Of a stretch of DNA of 29,357 bases, positions 4,644 through 29,357 are shown piece by piece. The notes under the pieces were generated by a model. That model was not told the DNA's origin. It saw only the letters and a program-made list of their open reading frames with translations, and made no database searches. The translations under genes and the position numbers were made by a program. Positions within the stretch are counted from its first letter, which is position 1, and each line of letters starts with the position of its first letter. Source of the stretch: Nannocystis sp. (GTDB lineage Bacteria; Myxococcota_A; Polyangia; Nannocystales; Nannocystaceae); contig NZ_JADJNN010000008.1 in the NCBI RefSeq assembly GCF_016714285.1, forward strand, positions 388,669 through 418,025, given 5' to 3'.

Positions 4644-5540
4644 ATGGCATCGATCCGCGAACATCGGGGCTTCACCCTCAACGGCTTCCTCGCGCTGGCG
4701 CTGTTCTTCGGGCTCGTCGCCTACGCCGGCAGCGTGGTCTACGAGGTCAGCACGGCCGCCGCGCTGCATGGCAACCCGCGCCCGCAGGACTTCATCCCGC
4801 TGTGGCAGGTCGGCGCCATCGGCCTGCTGCTGCTGATCTGCCTCGGCGGCTTCTTCGTCGTCCAGCCCAACGAGGCCCGCGTGCTGGTGTTCTTCGGCCG
4901 CTACGCCGGCAGCGTCGCCGACGCGGGCTTCTTCTTCGCCAACCCGCTGGCCGGGCGGCACACCATCAGCCTGCGGGTGCACAACTTCAACAGCGAGAAG
5001 CTCAAGGTCAACGACGCCCGCGGCAACCCGATCGAGATCGCCGCGGTGATCGTCTGGCGCGTCACGGATACCGCCCGGGCGCTGCTCGACGTCGAGAACT
5101 ACAAGGGCTTCGTCGCGGTGCAGTGCGAGACGGCGATCCGCGCGGTCGCGACTCGCTTCCCTTATGACAGCCACGACGGCGAGGATTCGCTGCGCAGCAA
5201 CCCCGACGAGGTGAGCGCCGCGCTCAAGACCGAGGTGCAGGCCCGCCTCGACGTCGCCGGCCTCGAGATCATCGAGGCCCGGCTGTCGCACCTCGCCTAC
5301 GCCGCCGAGATCGCCCAGACCATGCTGCGCCGCCAGCAGGCCGAGGCGATCGTCGCGGCTCGCCGGCAGATCGTCGAGGGCGCGGTCGGCATGGTGGAGA
5401 TGGCGCTGCGCCGCCTGCAGGAGACGGGCGTCGTTCAGCTCGACGAGGAGCGCAAGGCCGGGATGGTCAACAACCTCCTGGTCGCGCTGGTCGCCGACCG
5501 CGAGGCCCAGCCGGTGATCAACACCGGAACCCTCTACTGA
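4644..5540 (+). CDS. SPFH / band-7 (stomatin/prohibitin/flotillin-like) membrane protein.
   Basis: The ORF track gives 4614..5540; I prefer ATG 4644 because of the perfect RBS. There is an N-terminal TM helix ([19 protein letters not shown]), a second hydrophobic segment, then an SPFH core ([14 protein letters not shown]...[35 protein letters not shown]...[25 protein letters not shown]) and a coiled-coil-like C-terminus. Confidence 0.85.
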
Positions 5541-5553
5541 CGCCGGTGCCGTC

Positions 5554-5748
5554 ATGAGCGACAAGAAGCGCTTCCTCCTGCGCCTCGAGCCGGATCTCTA
5601 CGCCGCGCTCGAGCGCTGGGCCGCCGACGAGCTGCGCAGCGTCAACGGTCAGATCGAGTTCATCCTCAAGGAGGCGGCGCGCGGCAGCGGACGGCTGCGC
5701 GCGCCGGGTGAGGGCAAGGCCTCGCGGGGCCCGCCGCGGCCCCGTTGA
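5554..5748 (+). CDS. Small Arc/MetJ-type ribbon-helix-helix DNA-binding protein.
   Basis: 64 aa. It starts 14 nt after the SPFH stop, which suggests an operon. [37 protein letters not shown] matches the Arc repressor pattern (F-x-L-R...RSVN-x-x-I) of a beta-strand followed by two helices. The basic, Gly/Pro-rich tail is low complexity. Confidence 0.6.
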
Positions 5749-5862
5749 TCCGCACGGCCGCGGTCATGGCCGCCCCCAGGGCCACCGGCCTCGTTGCCCA
5801 CCCGCCTCGTTGCCCTCGGCCGCGGAGGATCACCGTGGTAAGCCGCGCGCGGATCCAGCATC

Positions 5863-7857
5863 ATGCGGCGGTCCATGCGACGTCCTGCACCCCGTAAGGC
5901 CGCGAGGCTCCGCCGCGCGGCGCTCCGTGCAACCGCCACCTTCGGCCTCGGCCTGAGCCTCCTGGCCTTCGGGACAGCCGAGGCCGCGCCCGCAGCTGGG
6001 CCCGCGTCGGCACCCGTGTCGGCACCCGTGTCGGGCTCTGGCGTCGCGCCGCCTTCTGCGGCCACGCCTGGCGCCGCGACGCTGTGGACGCCTGGCATCC
6101 GCGACGCCGCCCACCCGGGCCGCTTCGTCCGCGAGTTCGCCCGGCGCAAGGCCCTGCTGCGCGCCCCCGGTCCCGAGGCGGTGCTGGCACTGCTCGGCGC
6201 GATGGTCGAGCTGCAGGGCGAGATCCCCGGCCTCGAGATGGCGGCCTTCCTCGACGGCGCCCGCAAGCACCGCGAGCCGCTGGTCGCCAGCCACGCCGGC
6301 TACCTGCGCGCGCAGCTCGAGGAGGCCCGCGGCGATCAGGCGCGGGCCACCGCGATGTACCGCGCCGAGGGCTTCGTGCTCGACTGGCAGATCGTCGGCC
6401 CCTTCGAGAACACCGGGCGAGCCGGTCACGCAGCCGTCTACGCCCCCGAGACCGATCCCTTCTCCGCCGGTCAGAGCTTCGTCGGCAAGCTGCCCGGCGA
6501 GCCGCTGGTGTGGCGCCGCTTCGTCCACGAGCAGGCCCCGCGCGGCGCCTTCATCAACCTCGCCGACCTGCTCGACCCGCCCGAGCAGGCCGTCGGCTAC
6601 GCGACCGTGTGGGTCAAGGTCGATCGGCCTGGTCGCGCCGCGCTGCACCTCGGCACCAGCGGCGCCTACAAGGTCTGGCACGACGGCGTCCTGGTCGGCA
6701 GCGACGACACCTACCGTACGCCGACGCCGCTGCAGGCCAGCCACGCGCTCGAGCTGCGCGCGGGCTGGAACCGCATCCTCATCAAGCTGGCCACCGACGA
6801 CGGCATGTGGGGCTTCTACGCCCGGCTCAGCGCCCCCGACGGCCGCCCGCTCGCCGGTCTGGTGAGCACCCTCGAGCCGCAGTCGACGCCCGTGTCGCCT
6901 GGCGCGAAGGACAGGTCCGTTAGCACAGGTCCGAAGGGACAGGTCGCAAAGGCCAGCCCCGGCGCGGGCGGCGTCGCCAGCAGCCCGGTCGGCGTCGGCC
7001 GCCCCGGTGCGGGCGGCGTCGCCAGCAGCCCGGTCGGCGTCGGCCGCCCCGGCGTGCGCAGCCTGCGGGCCGCGCTCGAGGCGAAGGGGCAGGGGCCGCG
7101 CGCGCGCCCGGCCGACCGCCTCGCGCTGGTCGAGTTCTACCGCTGGACCTTGCCGTTTGCCCGCGAGGACCGCAGCGCCGTCGACCGCGCCCGCGAGGCC
7201 GACAGCGCGCTGGGCACCGCTCGCAGCGCGTACCTGCTGGCGACCCTCGACCCCGACCAGAACAACAGCCGCGTCGCCCTGCAGCGCGCCGTCGAACGCG
7301 CCCGCGCTGAAGGGTCCGGCTCCCGGGAGGGCGGCGCCCCGCTGCTGGCCACGCTCCTGGTCGAGCTCTCGCTGCGCGACCGTTACCTCGGCCTCGAGTC
7401 GCGGGCGCGGGCGCTGCTCGACGAGGCCTTCCGCACCGCGCCCGACGACGTCATCGTCGAGCTCGCGCTGGCCGAGCGACTCTCGGAGGACGGCTTCCCG
7501 CTGGCCGCGCTGGCCTGGGTCGGCGACATGCAGCGGCGCTACCCGGACTCGGCGATCCTGGCCCGTCAGCAGGCCGAGCGGCGCATGAACCTCGGCCGCA
7601 CCGAGGAGGCGCTGCAGATCCTCGGCACCCTGCAGGGCGCCCAGCCGACCGACCTCGGCGTCGCCGCGGAGATGCAGGACGGCCTGCTCCGGCTCGGCCG
7701 CGCCGACGAGGCGGTGGCGATCGCCCGCGAGCGCGTGCGTCTGGTCCCCGGCCTGCCCGAGAGCCACCGCGCCCTGGCCCGCTTCGAGGAGGCCCGCGGC
7801 GACCTCGCGGCCGCCCGCGCGGCGATGCAGCGGGCCGCCGATCTGGCCCCCGCATGA
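5863..7857 (+). CDS. N-terminal part (signal peptide, beta-sandwich-like domain, TPR repeats) of a large TPR-DUF3857-transglutaminase-like protein. The frame is interrupted at a C5 homopolymer at 7847-7851. It probably continues into 7853..9859.
   Basis: There is a signal peptide (MRRSMRRPAPRKAARLRRAALRATATFGLGLSLLAFGTAEA|AP) and a C-terminal half rich in TPR-like helices (LDEAFRTAPDDVIVELALAERL..., EALQILGTLQGAQPTDL...). The protein is collinear with the N-terminal 680 aa of the downstream paralog at 9867..13718. Confidence 0.8.
   Translation: MRRSMRRPAPRKAARLRRAALRATATFGLGLSLLAFGTAEAAPAAGPASAPVSAPVSGSGVAPPSAATPGAATLWTPGIRDAAHPGRFVREFARRKALLRAPGPEAVLALLGAMVELQGEIPGLEMAAFLDGARKHREPLVASHAGYLRAQLEEARGDQARATAMYRAEGFVLDWQIVGPFENTGRAGHAAVYAPETDPFSAGQSFVGKLPGEPLVWRRFVHEQAPRGAFINLADLLDPPEQAVGYATVWVKVDRPGRAALHLGTSGAYKVWHDGVLVGSDDTYRTPTPLQASHALELRAGWNRILIKLATDDGMWGFYARLSAPDGRPLAGLVSTLEPQSTPVSPGAKDRSVSTGPKGQVAKASPGAGGVASSPVGVGRPGAGGVASSPVGVGRPGVRSLRAALEAKGQGPRARPADRLALVEFYRWTLPFAREDRSAVDRAREADSALGTARSAYLLATLDPDQNNSRVALQRAVERARAEGSGSREGGAPLLATLLVELSLRDRYLGLESRARALLDEAFRTAPDDVIVELALAERLSEDGFPLAALAWVGDMQRRYPDSAILARQQAERRMNLGRTEEALQILGTLQGAQPTDLGVAAEMQDGLLRLGRADEAVAIARERVRLVPGLPESHRALARFEEARGDLAAARAAMQRAADLAPA
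6961..7050 (+). repeat. Two tandem copies of a 45-bp in-frame unit (ggYgcgggcggcgtcgccagcagcccggtcggcgtcggccgcccc) with one mismatch. It encodes GAGGVASSPVGVGRP twice.
   Basis: Direct reading: 6961-7005 versus 7006-7050 differ only at the third base (c/t). Confidence 0.9.
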
Positions 7858-7927
7858 CGCCGACATCCACGCCCAGATCGGCCGCCTCGCCGCGCGCGCG
7901 GGCGACGTCTCGGCCGCGATCCAGAGC

Positions 7928-9859
7928 GTGCGCCGCTCGCTCGAGCTGCGCCCGCAGCAGCCCGACCTCCGCGACTTCCTGGCGACCCTCGACCAGGGCG
8001 CCCGCGACGACCTGCTCGCCCGCTACCCCGTCGACCTCGAGGAGCTCGCGGCGATCGCGACGCCGGCGGCGTGGAAGGGCAAGGACGCCGGCATCCTGCT
8101 CGCGCGCACGGCCGTGCGCGTGCTCCCCAACGGCCTCAGCGAGCGCCTCGATCACCGCGTCATCCGCGTGCTCGACGACCGCGGCATCCGCTCGCAGGCG
8201 ATGCAGGGCGTCGTCTTCGACCCGGCCGAGGCCTACGTCGAGGTCCGCCGCGCCCGCGTGCGCCGGGCCGAGGGCGGGGTCGAGGAGATCGGCGACGCCA
8301 GCGTCGTCGCCCTCACCGACGCCGGTTACCGCATGTTCTACGACCAGCGCCAGCAGCGGGTCACCTTCAACGGCCTGCGCGTGGGTGACACCCTCGAGGT
8401 CGCGTTTGTCCGCCGGGACACCGCGGCGCGCAACAAGTTCGACGACTACTTCGGCGAGATCGCGGCCCTCGAGGACGTGCTGCCGCAGCGCCGCCGCGAG
8501 TACATCCTCGAGGCGCCGGCGGGGCGCAAGCTGTTCTTCAACCAGCCGGTCGAGGCCAGCCCCGGCAAGGAGCCCGGCACGACGCTCTACAAGCTGGTGG
8601 TCGGCGAGCGCAAGGGCATCCGCCCCGAGGGCAACATGCCGGGGTGGACCGAGATCGCGAAGTACCTCCACGTCAGCACCTTCGCCGACTGGGACGCCGT
8701 CGGTCGCTGGTACTGGAGCCTCGTCAAGGAGCAGCTGGTCGTCGACGCCAAGATCCGCGCCGCCGTCAACGAGGTCCTGCTCGGCCTGCCCGAGGGCGCC
8801 GACGAGCGAGCCAAGGTGCGCGCGCTCTACAAGCACGTGATCACCAGCACCCGCTACGTCGGCCTCGAGTTCGGCATCCACGGCTTCAAGCCCTACCGCA
8901 CCACCGACGTCTACGACCGCCGCTTCGGCGACTGCAAGGACAAGGCGAGCCTGCTCAAGGTGATGCTCGCCGAGGCCGGCATCGCGTCGAACCTCGTGCT
9001 GGTGCGCACCCGCGATCAGGGCACGATCGGCGCCACGCCGGCCTCGCTGTCCGCGTTCAACCACGCCATCACCTACGTCCCGAGCCTCGATCTCTACCTC
9101 GACGGCACCGCCGAGTTCTCCGGCCCGGAGGAGCTGCCGACCGGCGATCAGGGCGCGACCGTGTTGATCGTCCGCGACGGCGCCGGCGCCGAGCTGCGCA
9201 CGATCCCGACCAGCAAGCCCGGTGACAACGCCCAGACGATCCGCCAGACCATCGCCCTCGCGGCCGACGGCAGCGCCCGCGTGCAGCACGAGCTCACCGT
9301 CACCGGCGCCGGCGCGGCCGGCTGGCGCAGCATCTTGCAGAGCGCCGACAACCGCAAGGAGCGGCTCACCCACGCCTGGGGCGGCCAGTTCCCGGGCGTG
9401 GTCGTCGCCGACATCGAGGCGCCGACGCTCGGCGACGTGCTGCTGCCGGTCAAGCTGCGCAGCAGCTGGCAGGTGCCGAGCTGGGCCCAGACCCAGGGCG
9501 ACGGCCTGCGCTTCCCGGCGCTCGGCTACCGCACCGGCCTCACGCGCCAGCTCGCCGGTCAGGCCAAGCGCGAGCACGACCTCGTGATGGCCGCGCCGTC
9601 GATCGAGGACAGCCAGCTCGCGTACCAGCTGCCCCGGGGCTGGAAGATCGTCCAGGCCCCCGCCGACAAGCAGATCGACACGCCGCTGGCGAGCTTTCGC
9701 CTGCGCGTCGAGCAGAAGGGCGACACGGCCCAGGTCAGCACCCACATCGAGTACCGCAAGTCCCGCTTCACGCCCGCCGAGTACCGGGCCCTGCGCGACT
9801 TCCTCAGCCAGGTCGACGGCAGCCTCGATCAGGTGTTCGAGATCCGTCCGGAGCGCTAG
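7928..9859 (+). CDS. C-terminal part of the same protein: a DUF3857-like domain plus a transglutaminase-like cysteine-protease core with an intact Cys-His-Asp triad. The reading frame is open upstream to ~7850 and overlaps the end of the previous ORF in the +1 frame.
   Basis: FGDCKDKASLLKVMLAEAGI (Cys codon 8932-8934), SAFNHAITYVP (His) and LYLDGTAEF (Asp) form a transglutaminase-like core. Upstream of the annotated start, the same frame reads HDADIHAQIGRLAARAGDVSAAIQSVRRSLELRPQQPDL. That is a TPR helix pair continuing the TPR array of the preceding ORF. Confidence 0.8.
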   Translation: MRRSLELRPQQPDLRDFLATLDQGARDDLLARYPVDLEELAAIATPAAWKGKDAGILLARTAVRVLPNGLSERLDHRVIRVLDDRGIRSQAMQGVVFDPAEAYVEVRRARVRRAEGGVEEIGDASVVALTDAGYRMFYDQRQQRVTFNGLRVGDTLEVAFVRRDTAARNKFDDYFGEIAALEDVLPQRRREYILEAPAGRKLFFNQPVEASPGKEPGTTLYKLVVGERKGIRPEGNMPGWTEIAKYLHVSTFADWDAVGRWYWSLVKEQLVVDAKIRAAVNEVLLGLPEGADERAKVRALYKHVITSTRYVGLEFGIHGFKPYRTTDVYDRRFGDCKDKASLLKVMLAEAGIASNLVLVRTRDQGTIGATPASLSAFNHAITYVPSLDLYLDGTAEFSGPEELPTGDQGATVLIVRDGAGAELRTIPTSKPGDNAQTIRQTIALAADGSARVQHELTVTGAGAAGWRSILQSADNRKERLTHAWGGQFPGVVVADIEAPTLGDVLLPVKLRSSWQVPSWAQTQGDGLRFPALGYRTGLTRQLAGQAKREHDLVMAAPSIEDSQLAYQLPRGWKIVQAPADKQIDTPLASFRLRVEQKGDTAQVSTHIEYRKSRFTPAEYRALRDFLSQVDGSLDQVFEIRPER

Positions 9860-9866
9860 GCAACCC

Positions 9867-12800
9867 ATGTCATTCCCGTCCGCACCTGTCCTTCGGGCCA
9901 TGTTGTCCTTCGCCGCGATCGCGGCCCCGATCTCGCTGCCGGCGTGCAAGCACAAGGCCGAGACCACGCAGGCGCCGTTCACCGCCGACGCCGCCCGCCA
10001 GCGCGCCGCGGAGCTCGAGCGTCAGCTCGTCAAGCAGCCGCAGGACGACGTCGCCGCGCTCGAGCTGGCCAACCTGCAGTGGTTGCACCTGCGGGCCACC
10101 GCGAAGGCGCTCCCCACCTTCGATCGCCTGGCCGCGCGGGGCAACCCCTACGCCCAGGTCGCGCGCATGATCATCGCCGACGCGCGCCTCGACCTCGTCA
10201 CCGTGCGCAGCATGGCCCACGCGCTGATCAAGGGCGCCGCCGCGGCGCCGGGCCTCGCCCCTGCCGATGTCGCCGAGCGGGCCGCGCTGGCCGAGCTCGG
10301 CGCCCGCTACATCGGCGAGAACCACGGCGAGCTGCCCGACGACGACCTCGACTTCACGCGCTTCTTCGCGGAGGTGGAGCGCCTGCCGCTCCCGGTCGCC
10401 GTCACCCAGCCGCTGCTGAGCCAGCGCGCCAGCATCGCTCGCCGCCTCGATCAGCCCTACCTGGCCTACTACGAGGCTCAGGGCTGCGTGCGCGCCTGGC
10501 AGGTCGGCAAGGTCGAGGGCCACCTCGAGGCCTTCGAGCTGCGCCGCGCCGCGGCCGACCCCGCCGCGTTCGAGCTCGACCCGCAGGCCGTGCTCACGCC
10601 GCTGTCCTGCGTCGTCCGCACCTGGAACCCGACCCCGCGCGCCGGCATGCGGCGCATGCGAAGCTACCTCGACGTCCCTGGCGAGCAGCTCACCCTCAAC
10701 ATCAGCAGTCAGGAGGCGGTCCGCGTCTACCTCGACGGCGCGCCGATCCACCGCAGCGACCGCAGCGACCGCTGGCCCCGCGGCGACAACACCCTCGAGC
10801 TCAAACTACAGCCTGGCATCCACCGCCTCGACGTCCACACCGCCGTGCCGCGCGAGAAGGTCTGGGTCCTGGTCCGCGCCACCGACCACCGCGGTCAGGC
10901 CGTGCCGGCCAGCGTCGAGGCGAAGGGCCCGCTGGCCCCGGCCTTCACAGGTCAGCCCGTGCGCCCGCGTTCGCCGTTCTTCCCATATGCACAGGGCCCG
11001 ATCGCCGGCCCGAGTTACGCGCCGCTGCGCATGCTGCTGGCCGCCTCCGACGCGATGGCCGACGCCAACAGCGACGACGCCGAGGGCTTCATCAAGGCGC
11101 TGCGCCACGCGGGCCCGAACTTCGCCGAGGGCGAGCTGCTGGTCGCGGCCTTCGAGACCGGCGACCCCACGCGTGACCGCAGCACCTCGACGGCGCGCCA
11201 GCGGGCGGCGATCGAGCGGGCCCTGGCGATCGACCCGGGCCTCGCCCGCGCGAGGATCCGCCTGCTCGAGATGGGCCTCGAGCGCGGCGAGACCAGCGAG
11301 GTCCTCGACGCCGTCACCGCGCTCGGCGACAAGGCCCTGCGCAACGTCCCGGGCGAGCTGCTGCGCTACCAGGCCTACCTCGCCCGCGGCAACGAGTTCC
11401 AGTCCGACGCGGCCCTGGCCCGCGCCGCCGCGATCCACCCGGAGCACTGCGCGGTGCTCAAGGCCCAGCGCGTGGTGGCCCAGCGCCGCGGCGACGTCGC
11501 GGCCGAGGACGCGCTCTCCGCGAAGGTCGAGACCTGCCCCGGCACCACCGGCACGCGCGCCCGCCTGGCCGCCCGCCGCGGTCGCCGCGACGAGGCCCGC
11601 GCGCTCTACAAGAAGCTGCTCGAGCGCACCCCCGACGACGTCGACGTGATGGCCGAGCTCGCCGAGCTGGCGATCAGCGAGGACAAGCTCGACGAGGCCC
11701 TCGGCTACCGGCGCAAGATCCTCGGCCTGAACCCCTACGCGACCAGCATGCACGTCGCCATCGCCGACCTCCAGGCGCGCATGGGCGACCCCGCGGCCGC
11801 GCGCGCCAGCGTCGGCGAGGCGCTGGTCCGGGTCCCGCAGAGCATGGCGATGTGGCAGGTCGCGCAGAACATCGGCATCCCGGACGACCTCGAGGCGCTG
11901 CGCGTCGACGGCCTGCCGATCGTCGCGGCCTACCGCGCCGGCAAGCACGACCACGCCGGCGTCGGCGAGGTGCTGGTGCTCGACCGCAGCGTCACCCGCG
12001 TGTACCCCGACGGCAGCCAGCGCCACATCATCCACACGATCACCGAGCTGCGCTCCAAGGAGGCGATCGACCGCTACGGGGAGATCGAGCCGCGCGAGGG
12101 GACCCGCACGCTCACGCTGCACAGCATCAAGGCCGACGGCCGCGTGTTCGAGCCGGAGTCGATCCCCGAGAAGGACGGCCTCAGCCTGCGCGGCCTGCAG
12201 ATCGGCGACTTCGTCGAGTACGAATTCATGTTCGAGCGCGAGGAGCTCGGCCTGCTCCCGGGCTACGTCGACCTCTCGACCTTCCGCTTCCAGTCGCCCG
12301 AGACCCCGTTCCACATCTCGGAGATGATCGTCGCCTACCCGAGCGACATGCCGCTCAAGGCCGAGCTCCGGGCCGGCGCGCCGCAGGCCGTGGTCACCCG
12401 TCTCGCTGCGGTCGCTGGCCTCGCTGCGGGCGCTGGCCAGGGCGAGCTCACCGTGCAGCACTGGCGCGTCGACCGTTCGCCGCGCCTCGGCGTCGAGCCG
12501 CAGATGCGCAACAGCCTGTTCGAGGTCCCGAACGTGCGCGTGTACAGCGACGTCGACACCGCCGCGTGGCTGTCGGCGCTGGGCCTGCGCATCTACACCG
12601 GCCAGCGCAGCAACCTCGAGCTGCGCCAGCTGACCCGCAAGCTGATCGCCGGCAAGACCTCGCCGCGCGCCCGCCTGGAGGCGCTGCACCGCTGGGTCGT
12701 CGAGAACGTCGAGGAGGTCGGCGAGCTCACCGTGCCGGCCACGCTCACGCTCTCGGCGCGCAAGGGCAGCGGCATGATCCTGCTCAAGACCATGCTGCGC

Positions 12801-13718
12801 GAGGCCGGCCTGCGCGCGGAGCTGTGGATCGCCCGCGACAACTTCGGCGCCGACATCAAGCCCGGCGGCAACCCGCTGTTCGAGTCCTACGATTCGCCCT
12901 ACCTGGCCGTTTGGACAGGTGAGGGCGAGACCCCGACGATGGTCATCACCGGCTCCAAGGTGCTGCCGCTCGGCTACCTCGTGCCCGGCCTCTCGGGCGC
13001 GGCCGGCTTTCGCATCCCGCTCAGTGAGAGCGACACGGCGCCCGGCGCCGTTCGCTTCCCGGTCCGGCCGGCCGCGCTCGCCGACCGCCGCAGCTACCGC
13101 GTCCGCCTCGAGCTCGGCCGCGACGGCAGCGGCCGCGTCGAGGGCAGCATCGAGCTGCAGGGCATGGAGGCCGCGGCCTGGCGCGACGTGCTGCGAAACC
13201 TCGACCGCGACCGCATCAACGACGGCTTCGAGCGGGCCGAGCTGTCGGTGCTGTTCCCCGGCGCCACGGTCGAGCTCGCGGACCTGCAGATCGAGCAGGA
13301 GAAGCAGCTGGACGCCCCGCTGCGCCTGATCTTCCAGGGCGGCATCCGCGGCGCCGTGGTGGCCCAGGGCGGCGAGCTGCTGATGCGCGCCGCGACCGTG
13401 CCGCTCAACGTCGGCCTCGGCTACACGGCGCTGCCCGAGCGCAAGACCGGCTACGCGATCCCCTACGCGCCGTTGCTCGATGCCGAGGTGACGATCCAGA
13501 TCGCCGGGGCCAAGTTCACCGGCACGCCCAGCGCCGAGACGATCGACACGCCGCAGGGCAGCTACCACCGCAGCGTCGAGGTCGGCGCGGAGGGCCTGAC
13601 CGTGCGCACGCGTGCGACTCTCGGCACCGGCGTGTTCGGCCCCGAGGTCTACCCCGCGCTCGCCAGCCTGACCCGCCGGGTCAAGGCCGCCGAGGACCAG
13701 GTCATCCGCGCCCGCTGA
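9867..13718 (+). CDS. Large (1283 aa) putative lipoprotein with the same architecture: TPR, DUF3857-like, then a transglutaminase-like fold whose catalytic residues are degenerate (predicted pseudo-enzyme).
   Basis: N-terminal signal with lipobox (MLSFAAIAAPISLPAC). TPR-like helices span ~aa 400-680 (ALYKKLLERTPDDVDVMAELAELAI..., EALGYRRKILGLNPYATSMHVAIADL...). A DUF3857-like segment follows (VLVLDRSVTRVYPDGSQRHIIHTITELRSKEA). The transglutaminase core aligns to the upstream paralog, but the Cys position reads SARKGSGMILLKTMLREAGL (no Cys) and the His and Asp positions are also replaced. It starts 7 nt after the previous stop. Confidence 0.85.
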   Translation: MSFPSAPVLRAMLSFAAIAAPISLPACKHKAETTQAPFTADAARQRAAELERQLVKQPQDDVAALELANLQWLHLRATAKALPTFDRLAARGNPYAQVARMIIADARLDLVTVRSMAHALIKGAAAAPGLAPADVAERAALAELGARYIGENHGELPDDDLDFTRFFAEVERLPLPVAVTQPLLSQRASIARRLDQPYLAYYEAQGCVRAWQVGKVEGHLEAFELRRAAADPAAFELDPQAVLTPLSCVVRTWNPTPRAGMRRMRSYLDVPGEQLTLNISSQEAVRVYLDGAPIHRSDRSDRWPRGDNTLELKLQPGIHRLDVHTAVPREKVWVLVRATDHRGQAVPASVEAKGPLAPAFTGQPVRPRSPFFPYAQGPIAGPSYAPLRMLLAASDAMADANSDDAEGFIKALRHAGPNFAEGELLVAAFETGDPTRDRSTSTARQRAAIERALAIDPGLARARIRLLEMGLERGETSEVLDAVTALGDKALRNVPGELLRYQAYLARGNEFQSDAALARAAAIHPEHCAVLKAQRVVAQRRGDVAAEDALSAKVETCPGTTGTRARLAARRGRRDEARALYKKLLERTPDDVDVMAELAELAISEDKLDEALGYRRKILGLNPYATSMHVAIADLQARMGDPAAARASVGEALVRVPQSMAMWQVAQNIGIPDDLEALRVDGLPIVAAYRAGKHDHAGVGEVLVLDRSVTRVYPDGSQRHIIHTITELRSKEAIDRYGEIEPREGTRTLTLHSIKADGRVFEPESIPEKDGLSLRGLQIGDFVEYEFMFEREELGLLPGYVDLSTFRFQSPETPFHISEMIVAYPSDMPLKAELRAGAPQAVVTRLAAVAGLAAGAGQGELTVQHWRVDRSPRLGVEPQMRNSLFEVPNVRVYSDVDTAAWLSALGLRIYTGQRSNLELRQLTRKLIAGKTSPRARLEALHRWVVENVEEVGELTVPATLTLSARKGSGMILLKTMLREAGLRAELWIARDNFGADIKPGGNPLFESYDSPYLAVWTGEGETPTMVITGSKVLPLGYLVPGLSGAAGFRIPLSESDTAPGAVRFPVRPAALADRRSYRVRLELGRDGSGRVEGSIELQGMEAAAWRDVLRNLDRDRINDGFERAELSVLFPGATVELADLQIEQEKQLDAPLRLIFQGGIRGAVVAQGGELLMRAATVPLNVGLGYTALPERKTGYAIPYAPLLDAEVTIQIAGAKFTGTPSAETIDTPQGSYHRSVEVGAEGLTVRTRATLGTGVFGPEVYPALASLTRRVKAAEDQVIRAR

Positions 13719-15799: not shown

Positions 15800-17173
15800 C
15801 TAGACCTTGAGGCCCGCGAGCGGTCCGGTGCTGTCGTCGCCGAAGCTCGGCGTCGGCACCTCGAAGGCCTCGGCGATCGAGATGAAGAGGTTGGCGAGCG
15901 GGGTCTTGTCCGGGACCTTGAGGTGGCGGCCCGGCGTGATCGCGCCGCCGAGCTTGCCGGCGACCAGCACGGGCAGGTCATCGTGGTTGTGGGCGTTGCC
16001 GTCCGCGATCTCCGAGCTCAGATAGACCACGGTGTTGTCGAGCAGGGTGCCGTCGCCGTCGGGGCTGTCCTTGAGCTTCTGCAGCAGTTTGGCGAACTGC
16101 GCGACCTCCCAGGTGTCGATGATCTCGAGCTTGGCGAAGTTCTCGGGCAGGTCCTGGTGGTGGCTGATCTCGTGGTGGGCCCCCGGGGCGCCGATGAACG
16201 CGTGGTCGCGGCCGCTGCCGGCGTTCTCGAGCATGAAGGAGATGACGCGGGTCTGGTCGCACTGCAGCGACAGCACCATCAGCTCGGTCATGAGGTCGAC
16301 GTGGGTCGCGTGGTCCTGGTAGGCGCCGGAGAACATCGCCGGCAGCTCGCAGACGGCCTCGGTCTTCTCGTTGCTGACCCGCTTCTCGAGGTCGCGCAGG
16401 CCGGTGAGGTACTGCTCTAACTTGTCGCGGTCGGTCTTGCCGAGCTTCTTCTGCAGATCGAGCACCTGGTCGTTGGCGTAGTCGATGACGCTGAGGCGGT
16501 TGGCGTGGCGGATCGCCAGCTGCTCGGCGGTCGCGTCGGGGTCGAAGCCGGAGAACAGCAGGTCGAAGATCACCTGCGGGTCGGACAGCTTGGGCAGCGG
16601 CGTCTTCGGGTCGGCCCACGAGATGTTGCTGGTGTAGGCGCACGAGTAGCCGCTGTCGCAGTTGCCCATGGTGCCGCCGCTGGCGGTGCCGAACTGCAGC
16701 GAGCGGTGCGGCGTCGCGTCGCCGATCTGGTTGGCGATCAGCTGGTCGATCGAGATGTTGTTGACGAAGTCGACCTCGGACTTGAGCACGTGCGTGCAGG
16801 TGAGGAAGGCCGAGGTGCCGCCGGCGTGGTCGCCGGGGCCCTCCGGCTTGGCCGGCAGGTTGGCCAGGCCGCTCAGGACCAGCACGTCGCCCTTGAGGTC
16901 GACCATCGCGTTGGCGTCGACCAGCGGCGCCAGGATCTTGGTGAGCGCGTAGTCGGGGCCCTCGCTGGCCGGGGTCCACGAGGGCATGTGGATGCCGCAG
17001 GGCAGGTAATAGAACAGGGCGCGCAGCGGCGAGGGCATCGGCGCTGCGCTGGCGCGTCCTCCGACTTTGGGCGCGAGCGCCTCGAGCCAGGGCAGGGCGA
17101 TCAGGGCGCCGGCGCCTCCGAGCATGGCCCGGCGAGACAGAGTGCGGCGAGGAGGGGTGGAGCTGCGCGTCAT
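15800..17173 (-). CDS. Tat-signal protein of the DUF1552 family (it may instead be the related DUF1501 family). This is the usual partner of PSD/PSCyt3 multi-domain proteins.
   Basis: The ORF track extends it to 17701 through an Arg/Pro-rich shadow. I place the start at ATG 17173-17171, where MTRSSTPPRRTLSRRAMLGGAGALIALPWLEALA is a twin-arginine signal with the typical ALPxLE motif. AGGAGA is 8 nt upstream. It contains an HHEISHH histidine cluster. It sits 32 nt downstream of the PSD/PSCyt3 gene on the same strand. Confidence 0.8.
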   Translation of the reverse strand: MTRSSTPPRRTLSRRAMLGGAGALIALPWLEALAPKVGGRASAAPMPSPLRALFYYLPCGIHMPSWTPASEGPDYALTKILAPLVDANAMVDLKGDVLVLSGLANLPAKPEGPGDHAGGTSAFLTCTHVLKSEVDFVNNISIDQLIANQIGDATPHRSLQFGTASGGTMGNCDSGYSCAYTSNISWADPKTPLPKLSDPQVIFDLLFSGFDPDATAEQLAIRHANRLSVIDYANDQVLDLQKKLGKTDRDKLEQYLTGLRDLEKRVSNEKTEAVCELPAMFSGAYQDHATHVDLMTELMVLSLQCDQTRVISFMLENAGSGRDHAFIGAPGAHHEISHHQDLPENFAKLEIIDTWEVAQFAKLLQKLKDSPDGDGTLLDNTVVYLSSEIADGNAHNHDDLPVLVAGKLGGAITPGRHLKVPDKTPLANLFISIAEAFEVPTPSFGDDSTGPLAGLKV

Positions 17174-17205
17174 GGTGGTGGTTCTCCTGGGCTCGCGGGC
17201 GCGGT

Positions 17206-19374
17206 TCACATCGAGGGGTCGCCGCGGCGCTGGCGGAAGGCGTCGGAGGTGACGAGGCTGACGACGAGGTCGGCGAAGCGGTACTCGCCGGTCTCGAAGC
17301 CCGCGACGACCTCGTCGAGGTAGGGGATGTCGGCCAGCGCGGTCGCCCGGCCGAGCGCGTAGATGAAGGTCTTGCGGGCGACGCAGCGGGTGAAGTCGGG
17401 CTCGCTGCTGATCAGCGTCTGCATCTCGAGGCCGTCGACGAAGGGCTTGCCGTCCGGGAGGGTGCCGCTCGGGTCGATCGTCAGCCCCTTCTCGTCGGCT
17501 CGCCAGGCGCCGAGCGGGTCGTAGTGCTCGAGGCCGAAGCCGAGCGGGTCCATGGCGACGTGGCAGCCGGCGCACTTGGGGTCGGCGCGGTGGGCCTCGA
17601 GGATCTCGCGCTGCGTCTTGCCCTCCACCGGGTCGAGCTTGGTGTCGACGCCGGGCGGCGGCGGCGGCGGGACCTGACACAGCAGGTTCTCCAGCACCCA
17701 CTTGCCGCGCTTGACCGGCGAGGTGTGATCGGCGTGCGAGAGCACGGTCATCAGGCCGGCCTTGTTGAGGATGCCCTGGAACGGCAGCTCACCGAGATCG
17801 GCCTCGACGAAGTCGGGCCCGAACGCGCCCTGCAGGCCGTAGTGGGCCGCCAGGCGCTGGTCGACGAAGGTCTTCTTGCTGGTCAGGAGCTCGAGCATGC
17901 TGCGCTCACCGGCGAAGAAGCTGGCCGCGAACAGCCGCATCTCGGTGCGCATCGAGGCCTTCATGCCGTCGTCCCACTGCGGGTAGAGCAGGACGTCCTT
18001 GAAGGCGAGGTTGACGTTGCGGATCAGCCACCACTGGCCGGCGAAGTTGTCGATGAGGGCGACGGCCCGCGGGTCCTCGAGCATGCGCCGGGCCTGCAGC
18101 TCGACCTGCTTCGGGTCCTGCAAGTTGCCCTGGTCGGCGGCCAGCAGCAGCTCGTCGTCGGGCATGCTGCTCCACAGGAAGTAGGACAGGCGCGAGGCGA
18201 GCTCGTGGTCGGCGAGCGGGTGCGGCGTGAGGTCGGTCGGGGTCGGGTCGAGCTCGACGCGGAACACGAAGTGCGGCGAGACGAGCACCGCCTGGAGGGC
18301 GACGCGCAGGCCGGCCTCGAAGTCCTGACCGGCGGCCTTGGCCTCGCTGATGAACTGGTAGAGGCGCTCGACCTCGGCGTCGCTGATCGGGCGGCGCCAG
18401 GCCCGACGGGCGAAGGCGCGGAGGATCTCGCGGCCGCAGCTGTCCTCGCCGTCGACCACGGGGTCGCAGATCATGATGCGCTTGCGCTGCTCGTTCTCCC
18501 CCATCACCAGGTCCTGCGGGCCCTCGACGCTGAACCAGTCGACCAGCAGGTTGCGGTCGGCCATCAGCATCTCGTCGTAGTAGTCGTTGGTGAACTCGAC
18601 CGCGAACTTGTGCAGGCCGGCGGTGGCCTCGATCTCGACCTCGTAGATCGCGGCGGCGTTCTCGACCGCGTCGGTGTCGACCATGAAGACCGGCACCTGG
18701 TCGACGGTGAGGTTGACGTGGGGGAGGTCGGGTCCGGCCTGCTGACCCCAGACGCGGGCGCGAAACAGGTACTTGCCGGCGTAGGGCAGCTCGATGGTCT
18801 GGTACACCTCGCCGTTGGAGTAGAGGTTCCAGGCGTCGCCCGACTGCTGACCGACCGAGGCGAGGGCGGTCTCCGCCTCGATCTGGAACTTGGTCGGGTC
18901 GGTGATCGGGATCGCCATCGCCTCGGCGATGAGGCCGTCGGCGGCGCGCTCATACAGCTCGGCCTGCAGCGGCGAGGTGCTGAGCACGTCGGCGATGTTG
19001 TCGAAGCCGAGGCCGAAGTCGTCGGCAGGGAACGCGTCGGCCGGGGTCTGGCTGGTGCCGAGCAGGTCGCGGACGGTGTTGTTGTACTCGTTGCGGTTGA
19101 GGCGGTGGATCGTGACGCGGCCGGGGTCGTCGGCCTCGCCGCCGCTCTCGGCGGTGTCGGTGGCCGTGGTGTCGTCGCCGACCGAGGTGGTCGGCGGCGT
19201 GTCTGTCGCGGAGCCGGGCTCGGTGGCGGCGCCGGTCGCCTCGCTCGCGCTGCCCTGACTCGAGTCGCCGCAGCCGCTCACGGCGACGAACAGCGCGAGG
19301 CCCCACGTCGCGCCGCCGAGCGCGGCGAGGTCCGATCGACAGAGGATGTTGCGGTGGTGCAGGGAAGCCATCAC
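17206..19374 (-). CDS. Multi-domain DUF1587/DUF1595/DUF1592/DUF1588(PSCyt3)/DUF1585 lipoprotein (Planctomycete-type PSD/PSCyt family) with a CxxCH heme-binding-like motif.
   Basis: Lipoprotein signal (LALFVAVSGC). DUF1587-like RLNRNEYNNTVRDLLG. DUF1595/1592-like LASRLSYFLWSSMPDDELL. PSCyt3-like KCAGCHVAMDPLGFGLEHYDPLGAWR. The poly-Pro stretch CQVPPPPPPGVD is typical of the family. Confidence 0.85.
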   Translation of the reverse strand: MMASLHHRNILCRSDLAALGGATWGLALFVAVSGCGDSSQGSASEATGAATEPGSATDTPPTTSVGDDTTATDTAESGGEADDPGRVTIHRLNRNEYNNTVRDLLGTSQTPADAFPADDFGLGFDNIADVLSTSPLQAELYERAADGLIAEAMAIPITDPTKFQIEAETALASVGQQSGDAWNLYSNGEVYQTIELPYAGKYLFRARVWGQQAGPDLPHVNLTVDQVPVFMVDTDAVENAAAIYEVEIEATAGLHKFAVEFTNDYYDEMLMADRNLLVDWFSVEGPQDLVMGENEQRKRIMICDPVVDGEDSCGREILRAFARRAWRRPISDAEVERLYQFISEAKAAGQDFEAGLRVALQAVLVSPHFVFRVELDPTPTDLTPHPLADHELASRLSYFLWSSMPDDELLLAADQGNLQDPKQVELQARRMLEDPRAVALIDNFAGQWWLIRNVNLAFKDVLLYPQWDDGMKASMRTEMRLFAASFFAGERSMLELLTSKKTFVDQRLAAHYGLQGAFGPDFVEADLGELPFQGILNKAGLMTVLSHADHTSPVKRGKWVLENLLCQVPPPPPPGVDTKLDPVEGKTQREILEAHRADPKCAGCHVAMDPLGFGLEHYDPLGAWRADEKGLTIDPSGTLPDGKPFVDGLEMQTLISSEPDFTRCVARKTFIYALGRATALADIPYLDEVVAGFETGEYRFADLVVSLVTSDAFRQRRGDPSM

Positions 19375-19559: not shown

Positions 19560-20645
19560 ATGCGTGGGGTCCTTGGTCTGGTAGCCGGGCTGGTTGCGAT
19601 CGCGGGGGCCGCTGGCTGCCTCGTCGTGAAGATCGACACCAGCGACTCGCTGACCGACCTGTCGCTCAGCGACACGCTGACCGACAGCTTCACCCTGACC
19701 TCGAGCCCGACCGACACCCTGCCGACCGGCGATCCGACCGGCGATCCGACCAGCGTGACGGACACGGACACGGACACGGACACCACGCCGGGGGTGTGCG
19801 GCGACGGGCAGGTCGGGGTCGGTGAGGCCTGCGACGACGGTGACGCGGACAACAGCGACGAGTGCCTGGCGAGCTGCGAAGTCGCGAGCTGCGGCGACGG
19901 CTTCGTGCACGCGGGCGTCGAGGCCTGCGACGACGGCAACCAGAACGGCGGCGACGGCTGCGAGCCCGACTGCACCCTCGGCGAGTGTGGCGACGGCGTG
20001 GTCCAGGGCGGCGAGCAGTGCGACGACGGCAACGGCGACAACGCCGACGATTGCCTGGCCACCTGTCTGAACGCGAGCTGCGGCGACGGCTTCGTGCGCG
20101 CCGGCGTCGAGGCCTGCGACGACGGCAACGCCAGCGACACCGACGCGTGCGTGCAGGGCTGCGTGGCGGCGAGCTGCGGCGACGGCTTCGTGCAGGCCGG
20201 CACGGAGCAGTGCGACGACGGCAACCAGACGCCGGGCGACGGCTGCGACAACTGCATCAGCGACGCCCTGCCGCCGGAGTGTCAGGGCATCGCGGTGCTG
20301 CAGGAGGCCTCGCGCAACGTCAGCGCCGGCACGGACGAGGTCGAGTGCGATCTCGAGCTCCCCGTCGAGGGCCAGTGGTCGCGCTTCTCGGGCCCCGCGG
20401 GCACGACCATGCCGACGGTCGCGCCGCCGGAGTTCGCCTGCGGGACGCACGCCCCGGGCTGGCTCAATGGTGCGATCCCCGTGCTGGCCGACGGCATCGT
20501 CGCGCGAGACGTGTGTTTCCACTGGGAGGGCAACACCTGCAACTGGAAGGTCCCGATCTCGGTGCGCAACTGCGGGCCCTTCGTGATGTTCAAGCTGATG
20601 CCAGTGCCGACCTGCGCCCTGCGCTACTGCGGCAGCGAAGGTTGA
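19560..20645 (+). CDS. Lipoprotein with five Myxococcus cysteine-rich repeats (TIGR02232-type C-G-D-G...E-x-C-D-D-G-N...D-x-C) and a C-terminal Cys/Trp-containing domain of unknown function.
   Basis: Signal plus lipobox ([20 protein letters not shown]). D/T/S-rich linker (TDTDTDTDT). Repeats [27 protein letters not shown] / [28 protein letters not shown] / [27 protein letters not shown] / [28 protein letters not shown] / [27 protein letters not shown]. The repeats are also visible as ~57-nt near-identical DNA blocks, for example 19882-19938 versus 20075-20131. Confidence 0.85.
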
Positions 20646-24948: not shown

Positions 24949-25011
24949 CGGCGCACGGTCCCACGCGGGTCAAGCAGCGGTCAAGCAGCGGGGGAAGGCA
25001 CGCGCCCGCGC

Positions 25012-27675: not shown

Positions 27676-29357
27676 TCACGGAGTGGGTGGTGTCGCGCCT
27701 GCGGGGTCCTGAAGCGACACTCCCACGGTACGCGAGAGCGAGGCCAGCGCGACGTTCTGGGCATGGATGGACTCGAAGTGCTTGAAGCGCCACTCGGCCC
27801 AGCGGGTGAGCGCCCTCTCGAGGTCGGTGAAGTTGCCGCCACCGACGGTCTGCTTGAGCTGTTGGTCGATGACCAGCTGTTTGGCCTTGCGGATGGCGCT
27901 GGCAGTGAGCTTGACCGCTTGTTCGGCTTCGAGCAGGTCGCGGTAGGCCTTCTCGACCTCGAGGGCGAGCAGCAGGTTCGCTGCCTCACGCTGGGCCTCG
28001 GCCTCGCGGCGCTCGGCGCGGGCCTTCTTCAGGTTGAAGGCCTGGTTGTGGAAGTCGAGGGTCCAGTTGAGGGCGAGGGCGAGGACCAGGCGGCTGTAGT
28101 TGAAGCGGTCCTGATAATACAGGGCGCGCATGTCGCGGTCGGCCTTGTTCGAGAAGGCGATCTGCACCGAGGCGACGACGCCGAGGTCGGGGAGGAACAT
28201 CGAGCGGGCGAACTTCTCGCCGGCCTTGCGGAGATCGACCAGACCGGCGGCCATCTTGGCCTCGGGGCGGGCCTTGAGACCGAGATCACGGTAATGGTCG
28301 ACCGGTTTGAGGCCGCCCGCGACGCGGTCCGTGAGCAGGTCGCGCTCGCTGACATCGAAGCCGGGCGGGGCGGCCTCGCCGGCGATCGTCCACAGGGTCG
28401 CGAGGGCGACGGCCTCGATCTTGCGGGCCGCGTTCATGCGCTCCTGCAGGGTGAGCTCGCCGAGCTCGACGCGGATGAGGTCGGCGGGGTCGCGGTCGGG
28501 GTTGGCCTCGTCGGGGTCGGCGTCGTCGCCCTCGCCGAGCTCCTTCGCGATCTGCCGCTTTGCGTCCTGCAGGACCGACCAGGCCTCGTGCAGGATGCCG
28601 ATGCTGCCGCGCGCGAGCAGGAGGGCGGTGTGGGCCTGATAGACGCGGAGGATGGTCTCCTGGCGGGCGCGCTCCTTGGCGAGCTGGGCCAGGGCGACGC
28701 CGGCGCGGGCCATGGCCTTGCCGTTCTTGATCTTGCCGAAGGTGTAGAGGGGGACGACGAAGTCGGCGTTGAAGCGGACGGTGACGCCGGCGCCGGCGAG
28801 CTGCTTGAAGTAGCCGCCGACGGTGTCGATGTCGACGCCGCCGGGCGGGCGGCAGAACTGGAAGTCGATCGGCGTCGTTGTGCCGAGCGCGTCGCTGGCC
28901 GGGAGGGTGAGGTCGTCGCAGCGGGTCTGGAAGCCAGGCGCGAGCGCGGTGGTGGTCTTGATCACCGGGACCCAGGCGAAGCGGGCCTTGAGCAGGACGG
29001 CCTCGAGCTGCTCGACCTGGGCGTCGGCGGCGCGGATCAGCGGGTTCTGCAGGCCGAACTCGACGATCTGGGCCCGGCTGAGCTGAGGGACGCCGTCGGG
29101 GCGCGGACCGTAGGCGTCCATGCGGCGGGCGGGCGGGAGCTCGAAGAGGTCGGCCGGGGCCTGGGCGCCCGCGCTGCTGCGGGTGCTGAGGACCGGGGTC
29201 GCGGCGGTGGTGGCGGGCTTGCTGTCCTTGGGGACAGGTGTCGCGGTGGTGGGGTTGCTGTCCTTGGGGACAGGTGTCGCGGTGGTGGGGTTGCTGTCCT
29301 TGGGGACAGGTGTCGCGGCGGGGTTGCTGTCCTTGGGGACAGGTGTTGCGGCGGTTT
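27676..29357 (-). CDS. TolC-like outer-membrane factor (OEP family) with an N-terminal repetitive Pro/Thr-rich linker. Partial: the N-terminus runs off the window end.
   Basis: The ORF track starts it at Met 29121, but that Met is not followed by a signal peptide. My translation of the same frame is open to 29355 and reads TAATPVPKDSNPAATPVPKDSNPTTATPVPKDSNPTTATPVPKDSKPATTAATPVLSTRSSAGAQAPADLFELPPARRMDAYG..., so the real start is beyond the window. The body has the paired coiled-coil and beta-barrel repeats of OMF proteins (for example QERMNAARKIEAVALATLW, NWTLDFHNQAFNLKKARAERREAEAQ). Confidence 0.85.
   Translation of the reverse strand, partial: TAATPVPKDSNPAATPVPKDSNPTTATPVPKDSNPTTATPVPKDSKPATTAATPVLSTRSSAGAQAPADLFELPPARRMDAYGPRPDGVPQLSRAQIVEFGLQNPLIRAADAQVEQLEAVLLKARFAWVPVIKTTTALAPGFQTRCDDLTLPASDALGTTTPIDFQFCRPPGGVDIDTVGGYFKQLAGAGVTVRFNADFVVPLYTFGKIKNGKAMARAGVALAQLAKERARQETILRVYQAHTALLLARGSIGILHEAWSVLQDAKRQIAKELGEGDDADPDEANPDRDPADLIRVELGELTLQERMNAARKIEAVALATLWTIAGEAAPPGFDVSERDLLTDRVAGGLKPVDHYRDLGLKARPEAKMAAGLVDLRKAGEKFARSMFLPDLGVVASVQIAFSNKADRDMRALYYQDRFNYSRLVLALALNWTLDFHNQAFNLKKARAERREAEAQREAANLLLALEVEKAYRDLLEAEQAVKLTASAIRKAKQLVIDQQLKQTVGGGNFTDLERALTRWAEWRFKHFESIHAQNVALASLSRTVGVSLQDPAGATPPTP
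29221..29357. repeat. At least four tandem copies of a 33-36-bp unit (gctgtccttggggacaggtgtcgcggtggtggggtt) extending to the window edge. Each copy contains the palindrome CTGTCC-TTGG-GGACAG. It encodes the TPVPKDSNPTTA repeats of the OMF N-terminal linker.
   Basis: Direct reading: copies at 29221-29256, 29257-29292, 29293-29325 (3-nt deletion) and 29326-29357+ (truncated by the window). Confidence 0.9.

Follow-up and report, generated by a model that had tools for sequence, protein, structure and literature searches.

One extra cytosine splits a TPR-DUF3857-transglutaminase-like gene in a Nannocystis assembly, probably as a long-read consensus artefact

The putative proteases that combine DUF3857, a transglutaminase-like core and DUF3858 (PF12969, PF01841 and PF12970) are represented structurally by 3KD4. 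To our knowledge, the family has no biochemically characterised member; the literature searched on DUF3857 and on the assembly accessions yielded two incidental mentions of the domain and nothing relevant. Here we describe a member from Nannocystis sp. that is divided between two open reading frames (ORFs), 5863..7857 and 7928..9859, on the plus strand of a stretch of contig NZ_JADJNN010000008.1. This whole stretch, hereafter the window, comprises 29,357 nt at 72 % G+C, and all coordinates are positions within it. The encoded protein shares with the described family the canonical domain order and an invariant Cys-His-Asp triad. The Myxococcota version adds an N-terminal extension of ~700 residues, comprising a signal peptide, an N-terminal domain and an array of tetratricopeptide repeats (TPRs), and is paired with a triad-less lipoprotein paralog.

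The split itself also has described counterparts. Homopolymer indel errors in Nanopore R9.4.1 assemblies (Sereika et al. 2022, PMC9262707; pipeline of Singleton et al. 2021, PMC8012365) are one-base homopolymer changes unique to one assembly that leave two adjacent same-strand ORFs jointly matching one full-length protein. Both traits are found here, and the source is apparently of the same type, a metagenome-assembled genome (MAG) built from R9.4.1 reads with CANU, medaka and low-coverage Illumina-Racon polishing. The more typical error deletes a base from a longer run; the present change adds one to a short run (C4 to C5) and lies in a short-read-polished sequence. Frameshift pseudogenes that arise by replication slippage share with this locus an added base in a mononucleotide run, premature termination and an otherwise intact gene; unlike them, this locus shows no relaxed selection and no extra lesion, and a genome 99.5 % identical to it lacks the lesion. 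Frameshifting of the prfB type likewise requires a +1 shift and has a 0-frame stop shortly past a slippery-looking codon, but here the arrangement is not conserved, lacks a stimulator resembling a Shine-Dalgarno (SD) sequence, and leaves the stop outside the A site of the slippery codon. That a one-base homopolymer indel in a long-read MAG can split a gene is well known, and the finding is ordinary.

The lesion and the parts of the gene on either side of it map as follows:

5863..7857, plus strand: upstream fragment in frame 1, with a signal-peptide-like N-terminus, N-terminal domain, linker and TPR repeats; ends ...DLAPA-TGA; G+C content at third codon positions (GC3) 0.93
7756..7885, plus strand: TPR_14 unit cut by the frameshift (Pfam; residues 632-674 of the repaired protein)
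7847..7851, plus strand: C5 homopolymer with the extra base; relatives all have C4 (GCC CCG, Ala-Pro)
7853..9859, plus strand: downstream fragment in frame 2, with the rest of the TPR array, DUF3857, the transglutaminase-like core and DUF3858; stop codon 9857-9859
7855..7857, plus strand: premature TGA in frame 1, which needs both the frameshift and a synonymous C-to-T change at 7855
7928..7930, plus strand: GTG, the annotated start of MBK7826804.1 and the first start codon in frame 2
8126-8578, plus strand: DUF3857 (Pfam match; residues 755-905 of the repaired protein)
8801-9046, plus strand: transglutaminase-like core (Pfam match)
8933-8935, 9062-9064 and 9101-9103, plus strand: codons of the triad Cys1024, His1067 and Asp1080
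9563-9811, plus strand: DUF3858 (Pfam match)

A sequence-only reading of the window had ended the upstream ORF at a TGA close behind the C5 run, and the sequence bears this out: positions 7840-7860 read GATCTGGCCCCCGCATGACGC, and the frame-1 codons at the site are GAT CTG GCC CCC GCA TGA (D L A P A stop). The stop is, however, the second codon after CCC, not three codons on as that reading had counted. It exists because the single-nucleotide polymorphism (SNP) T7855 is combined with the frameshift. The codon at 7855 is CAT in the window and CAC in a sister MAG described below; with C at this position, frame 1 would stay open to 8386. Frame 2 is stop-free from 7589 to 9859, so that the shifted frame does run on into the downstream ORF as proposed. 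Deleting one C yields an uninterrupted ORF of 1,331 aa, in line with the ~1330 aa predicted, which reads ...DLAP-HDADIHAQIGRLAARAGDVSAAIQSVRRSLELRPQQPDL... across the junction. In the repaired reading the peptide spanning the junction is AADLAPHDADIHAQIGR (…AADLAP-HDADIHAQ…), and the truncated C-terminus is AADLAPA. The window contains 32 homopolymers of at least 5 nt (17 C5, 14 G5 and one G6) and 183 exact C4 or G4 runs. A C5 run by itself is unremarkable in this setting; the frame switch is the non-random part.

The two ORFs are one gene, not two, because a TPR match, the GC3 signal and ortholog homology all cross the junction. When the repaired protein was searched against Pfam, TPR_14 matched residues 632-674 (E=1e-9) and bridged the junction at residue 663/664, restoring the continuous TPR array that had been anticipated. 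Further along the same protein, DUF3857 scored 71.2 bits (gathering cutoff 24.6; E=1.4e-19), the transglutaminase-like core was borderline with 23.2 bits for a cutoff of 23, and DUF3858 reached 34.9 bits (cutoff 27; E=1.9e-8). Among solved structures, 3KD4 is the closest (3kd4_A, E=5.3e-7). ORF1 alone returned just a weaker TPR_14 match at residues 608-640, and all three C-terminal domains were found with ORF2 alone. Up to 7851, frame 1 has a GC3 of 0.98; over 7853-7927, a stretch of 25 codons ahead of any start codon, the value for frame 2 is 0.96, and past the stop GC3 in frame 1 falls to 0.54. The triad residues Cys1024, His1067 and Asp1080 all lie 3′ of the shift, are intact in the window and are invariant in 67 of 67 aligned family members. 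The product is predicted to be an exported protein of ~1,331 aa, with a signal peptide, N-terminal domain, TPR array, DUF3857, Cys-His-Asp core and DUF3858.

In the public annotation the upstream half is MBK7826803.1 / WP_293272451.1 (613 aa, GTG 6016..7857, 'tetratricopeptide repeat protein') and the downstream half is MBK7826804.1 / WP_293272452.1 (643 aa, 7928..9859, 'DUF3857 domain-containing protein'). Between 7853 and GTG 7928, frame 2 contains no earlier ATG, GTG or TTG, and no SD-like, promoter-like or terminator-like site was found around that GTG. The 25 codons 5′ of it carry a coding signature and homology to orthologs. T7855 also yields the sequence GCATGA, in which the TGA stop overlaps an ATG (window 7854-7857). 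ATG 7854 opens a third frame (spurious ORF 7854..8840) instead of frame 2, in which the true downstream coding sequence lies, and so it is unable to serve translational coupling. At the other end of the gene, the public starts (GTG 6016, and the equivalent of GTG 6028 in the sister) omit ~51-55 N-terminal residues, including the signal-peptide-like segment. Judged by sequence, ATG 5863 or 5875 is more likely to be the true start than these GTG calls; a start at ATG 5863 is supported by the motif LLAFGTAEAAPA, the core of the signal-peptide-like segment, which is conserved in orthologs. The low-complexity linker of the upstream fragment holds a 45-nt tandem duplication at 6951-7054 (2.3 copies, 94 % match), which encodes GAGGVASSPVGVGRP twice and is present in the sister MAG too. 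The closest orthologs are 25-60 residues shorter overall.

Intact relatives of the gene are numerous. A search of 5.8 billion proteins recovered 58 full-length relatives of 1,169-1,357 aa with 47-88 % identity, all of them single polypeptides; those with a taxon label belong to Nannocystis, Nannocystaceae or other Myxococcota. Across the junction, at residues 658-669, 0 of the 67 aligned relatives have a gap, and the motif A-x-x-L-A-P-[QH]-D-A-[DE]-L-H is conserved in this 67-sequence alignment. A genome collection was also scanned with the junction-spanning peptide. Among the matches listed, which have at most 65 % identity and do not include the closest genomes, a single-frame tblastn match runs through the site without a stop at 75 of 78 Myxococcota loci. 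The nearest orthologous DNAs, L001, L002 and L083, have ~91 % nucleotide identity over the C-terminal 2.8 kb, read CTGGCCCCGCA[C/G]GAC at the site, with four C, and are unsplit. They and the 99.5 % sister MAG thus carry the four C that the sequence-only reading had predicted for orthologs. That reading had also asked whether orthologs might likewise be split into two genes, and none is among the 75 loci or the 67 aligned proteins. A DNA pattern with 4 or 5 C, run against metagenomes, matched one contig, which has 4 C; none of the searches made turned up an independent 5-C sequence. Three JGI proteins from one 10,356-bp metagenome contig (P0102, P0104 and P0106, of 839, 90 and 272 aa) share a 90 % cluster with a full-length protein; they may be another copy of the gene broken by frameshifts in a different assembly.

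The closest comparison is with the sister MAG GCA_016717175.1 (JADKFZ010000004.1), which is 99.45-99.56 % identical at the nucleotide level across the whole 29.3-kb window. At the locus it has four C and a single gene of 1,276 aa, MBK9754424.1. The extra C is the sole isolated 1-bp indel between the two assemblies across 29 kb, and the remaining 31 homopolymers of at least 5 nt match between the MAGs, except for indels within a terminal 36-nt tandem repeat. Other length differences from the sister are a replaced or inserted patch of 12 nt at 17056-17066 and ~62 nt of intergenic sequence at 24992-24997. The SNPs that separate the two MAGs are patchy, with 25 in 7855-9700 and one in 5059-7854; further tight clusters occur at 13036-13082, 16406-16420, 17542-17614 and 20008-20066. 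This distribution suggests recombination mosaics or switching of the consensus between strains.

If the split were an old lesion, traces of decay might be sought in the downstream half. Relative to the sister, 24 codons differ 3′ of the shift, 19 synonymously and 5 non-synonymously, a ratio with a binomial p=1.5e-7 against a neutral expectation of ~27 % synonymous. With the differences polarised by three outgroups, 7 synonymous and 3 non-synonymous changes are derived on the window lineage; two of the three derived non-synonymous states are common to outgroup L001, and Gly923 alone is private to the window. Compared with the 91 % orthologs, the downstream half has a dN/dS of 0.26, against 0.20 in ortholog-ortholog controls, and the small excess is equal in the upstream half. 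Relaxed selection 3′ of the shift was accordingly not detected by dN/dS, by the 19:5 codon counts or by the polarised changes. No further stops or indels occur in the ~2 kb 3′ of the shift, and there is no second lesion in 4 kb. We therefore rejected a decaying pseudogene, which would show relaxed selection or extra disabling lesions. The lack of decay means that the lesion is either extremely young or not biological.

The provenance of the assembly bears on this choice. Singleton et al. 2021 (PMC8012365) describe 1,083 activated-sludge MAGs deposited in a sequential accession series (JADIXX, JADJ.., and beyond JADJZ). The sister accession, JADKFZ, falls in the JADIXX-JADK series, and so does locus L069 (JADJAE, isolate AalW_18-Q3-R10-53_BATAC.29, with 'tig...' contig names). 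From the protein-accession block, the organism label and the near-identical sister MAG, we infer that the window MAG comes from the same R9.4.1 project. The pipeline given in that source consisted of CANU on Nanopore R9.4.1 reads, Racon, two rounds of medaka and one round of Illumina Racon, and its entries for the Nannocystaceae MAGs JADJEE and JADJRA list 9-12x Illumina and 13-17x Nanopore coverage (PMC8012365). R9.4.1 consensus retains homopolymer indels that lead to frameshifted gene calls, according to Sereika et al. 2022 (PMC9262707).

We consider the split to be probably a long-read consensus artefact. Both the position and the length of the lesion are known exactly, and it is unique to this assembly. 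About one residual consensus indel per tens of kb is expected; at 0.5 % divergence, a true inactivating mutation should occur several-fold less often in any one stretch of 29 kb, a figure that is an estimate rather than a computed value. The repaired state would be a C4 run (GCC CCG), to which the record adds one C; this C would be a homopolymer insertion that light Illumina polishing left in the consensus of a Nanopore-based MAG. The organism would then carry an intact gene, and the two deposited proteins would be annotation artefacts.

Several points weigh against an artefact. The extra C lies 4 nt from the private synonymous SNP T7855, which forms the left edge of the SNP-dense block 7855-9700, and the edge of this block may be a recombination junction or reflect a haplotype that is genuinely specific to the strain. 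The assembly is Illumina-polished and otherwise has no single-base indel relative to the sister in 29 kb, and so its residual error rate is low. Homopolymer errors with R9.4.1 are more often deletions than insertions. Moreover, that the extra C is an error rather than a mutation is something we infer from a platform that was itself inferred.

The same points lend some credit to a genuine and very recent frameshift, strain-specific or segregating, in which C4-to-C5 replication slippage would have produced a nascent pseudogene in an activated-sludge Nannocystis strain. We regard this as possible, though less likely than an artefact. Slippage in homopolymers is the commonest natural route to frameshifts. 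The base survives in a hybrid-polished assembly that is length-concordant with the sister except in repeats and in the 12-nt and ~62-nt differences; the adjacent private T7855 and the onset of the SNP-dense block suggest a distinct haplotype; and a distant paralog adjoins the gene, though it is triad-less. Set against this are the unrelaxed selection, the absence of a second lesion in 4 kb, the estimated rarity of such mutations at this divergence, and an intact gene in the 75 loci and 67 proteins examined, including the 99.5 % sister. Under this explanation, the protein would be truncated after the sixth or so TPR and its catalytic half uncoupled from the signal peptide. A real frameshift would mean loss of function: ORF1 would keep the signal-peptide-like N-terminus and most of the TPRs, and the catalytic half would have neither an export signal nor an SD nor a promoter, with its first start codon only after 25 codons.

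The remaining explanations fare far worse. The sequence-only reading had listed a phase-variable site beside sequencing error and recent mutation; the error is now favoured and a mutation still has to be reckoned with, but phase variation is unlikely given the short tract and the four C of relatives. As a contingency tract, the run would switch by slipped-strand mispairing between 4 C (ON) and 5 C (OFF) to control a surface or secreted protein. Lengths of 4 and 5 are indeed seen in two assemblies of the same species, and the product is predicted to be exported, the class that we would expect to be affected. The tract, however, has just 4-5 bases, and known contingency tracts usually have 7 or more. 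None of the other runs of at least 5 nt, or of the C4 and G4 runs, varies in the window, bar the terminal-repeat indels. Every other relative examined has 4 C, within conserved Ala-Pro codons of a TPR helix-turn, and no other length was seen. We give this explanation very little credence.

It is about as improbable that the 5-C allele is real and that tRNA-Pro slips by +1 spontaneously at CCC-C, ahead of the rare GCA and the nearby stop, so that some full-length protein is still made. Were this so, the frameshift would be a strong down-regulator of a secreted TPR-transglutaminase-like enzyme and not a null allele. Least credible of all is a functional split, either by a programmed +1 ribosomal frameshift at CCC-C or as two separately translated, cooperating polypeptides. 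In the P site, CCC with a C after it is a context in which tRNA-Pro is prone to +1 shifts, and the next 0-frame codon, GCA, is rare (genome GC3=0.97), with the stop one codon later; but the frameshift is absent from all orthologs examined and from the sister MAG, and both forms were rejected, programmed shifting on account of this lack of conservation, of a site (GAUCUGG-CCC-GCA-UGA) with no SD-like (GGAGG-like) upstream stimulator and no stop adjacent to the slippery codon, of a downstream 100 nt that folds worse than shuffled sequence (z=+1.69), with no stable structure and no Rfam match, and independent translation of ORF2 because there is no start for 25 codons, no SD, no promoter-like site and no signal peptide, and the split cuts a TPR unit.

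Immediately downstream of the split gene lies its paralog:

9867..13718, plus strand: distant paralog of 1,283 aa with a lipobox-type N-terminus (…ISLPAC…), syntenic in all close relatives

As had been claimed from the sequence, this paralog and the repaired protein are collinear, though distant at 27 % identity. Residues 615-775 of the repaired protein align with 575-734 of the paralog, in the TPR region and across the junction, and 1030-1328 with 972-1283. No Pfam match to DUF3857 or to the transglutaminase domain was found in the paralog, and in a BLASTP alignment the positions of Cys1024, His1067 and Asp1080 are occupied by Lys, Ser and a gap, respectively. It is probably a catalytically dead partner kept beside the active gene in all close relatives.

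Elsewhere in the window, the Pfam architectures of 17 ORFs were scanned for other frameshifts, to gauge the quality of the assembly, and all are intact. On the minus strand, 15800-19374 encodes two proteins, one of planctomycete type (DUF1592/DUF1588/DUF1595/DUF1587/DUF1585, with a CBM60 insert) and after it one with DUF1552 (HXXSHH). These neighbours are a normal two-gene pair and not the result of a frameshift. The 12-nt patch at 17056-17066 lies in the 5′-terminal codons of the DUF1552 gene, and the difference at 24992-24997 lies upstream of an FG-GAP gene. The 36-nt tandem repeat (~4 copies, 29209-29355) occupies the 5′ end of a minus-strand outer-membrane efflux (OEP) gene, and its copy structure and register differ between the two MAGs.

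If the change were real, the locus would be an ordinary nascent pseudogene, with no new mechanism implied. In either case MBK7826803.1 and MBK7826804.1 are halves of one protein. The two entries ought to be joined or marked as frameshifted, since the 613-aa piece is even used to represent a cluster in a large protein collection. The locus also illustrates cleanly how one homopolymer indel in a long-read MAG, even a polished one, gives rise to spurious gene families.

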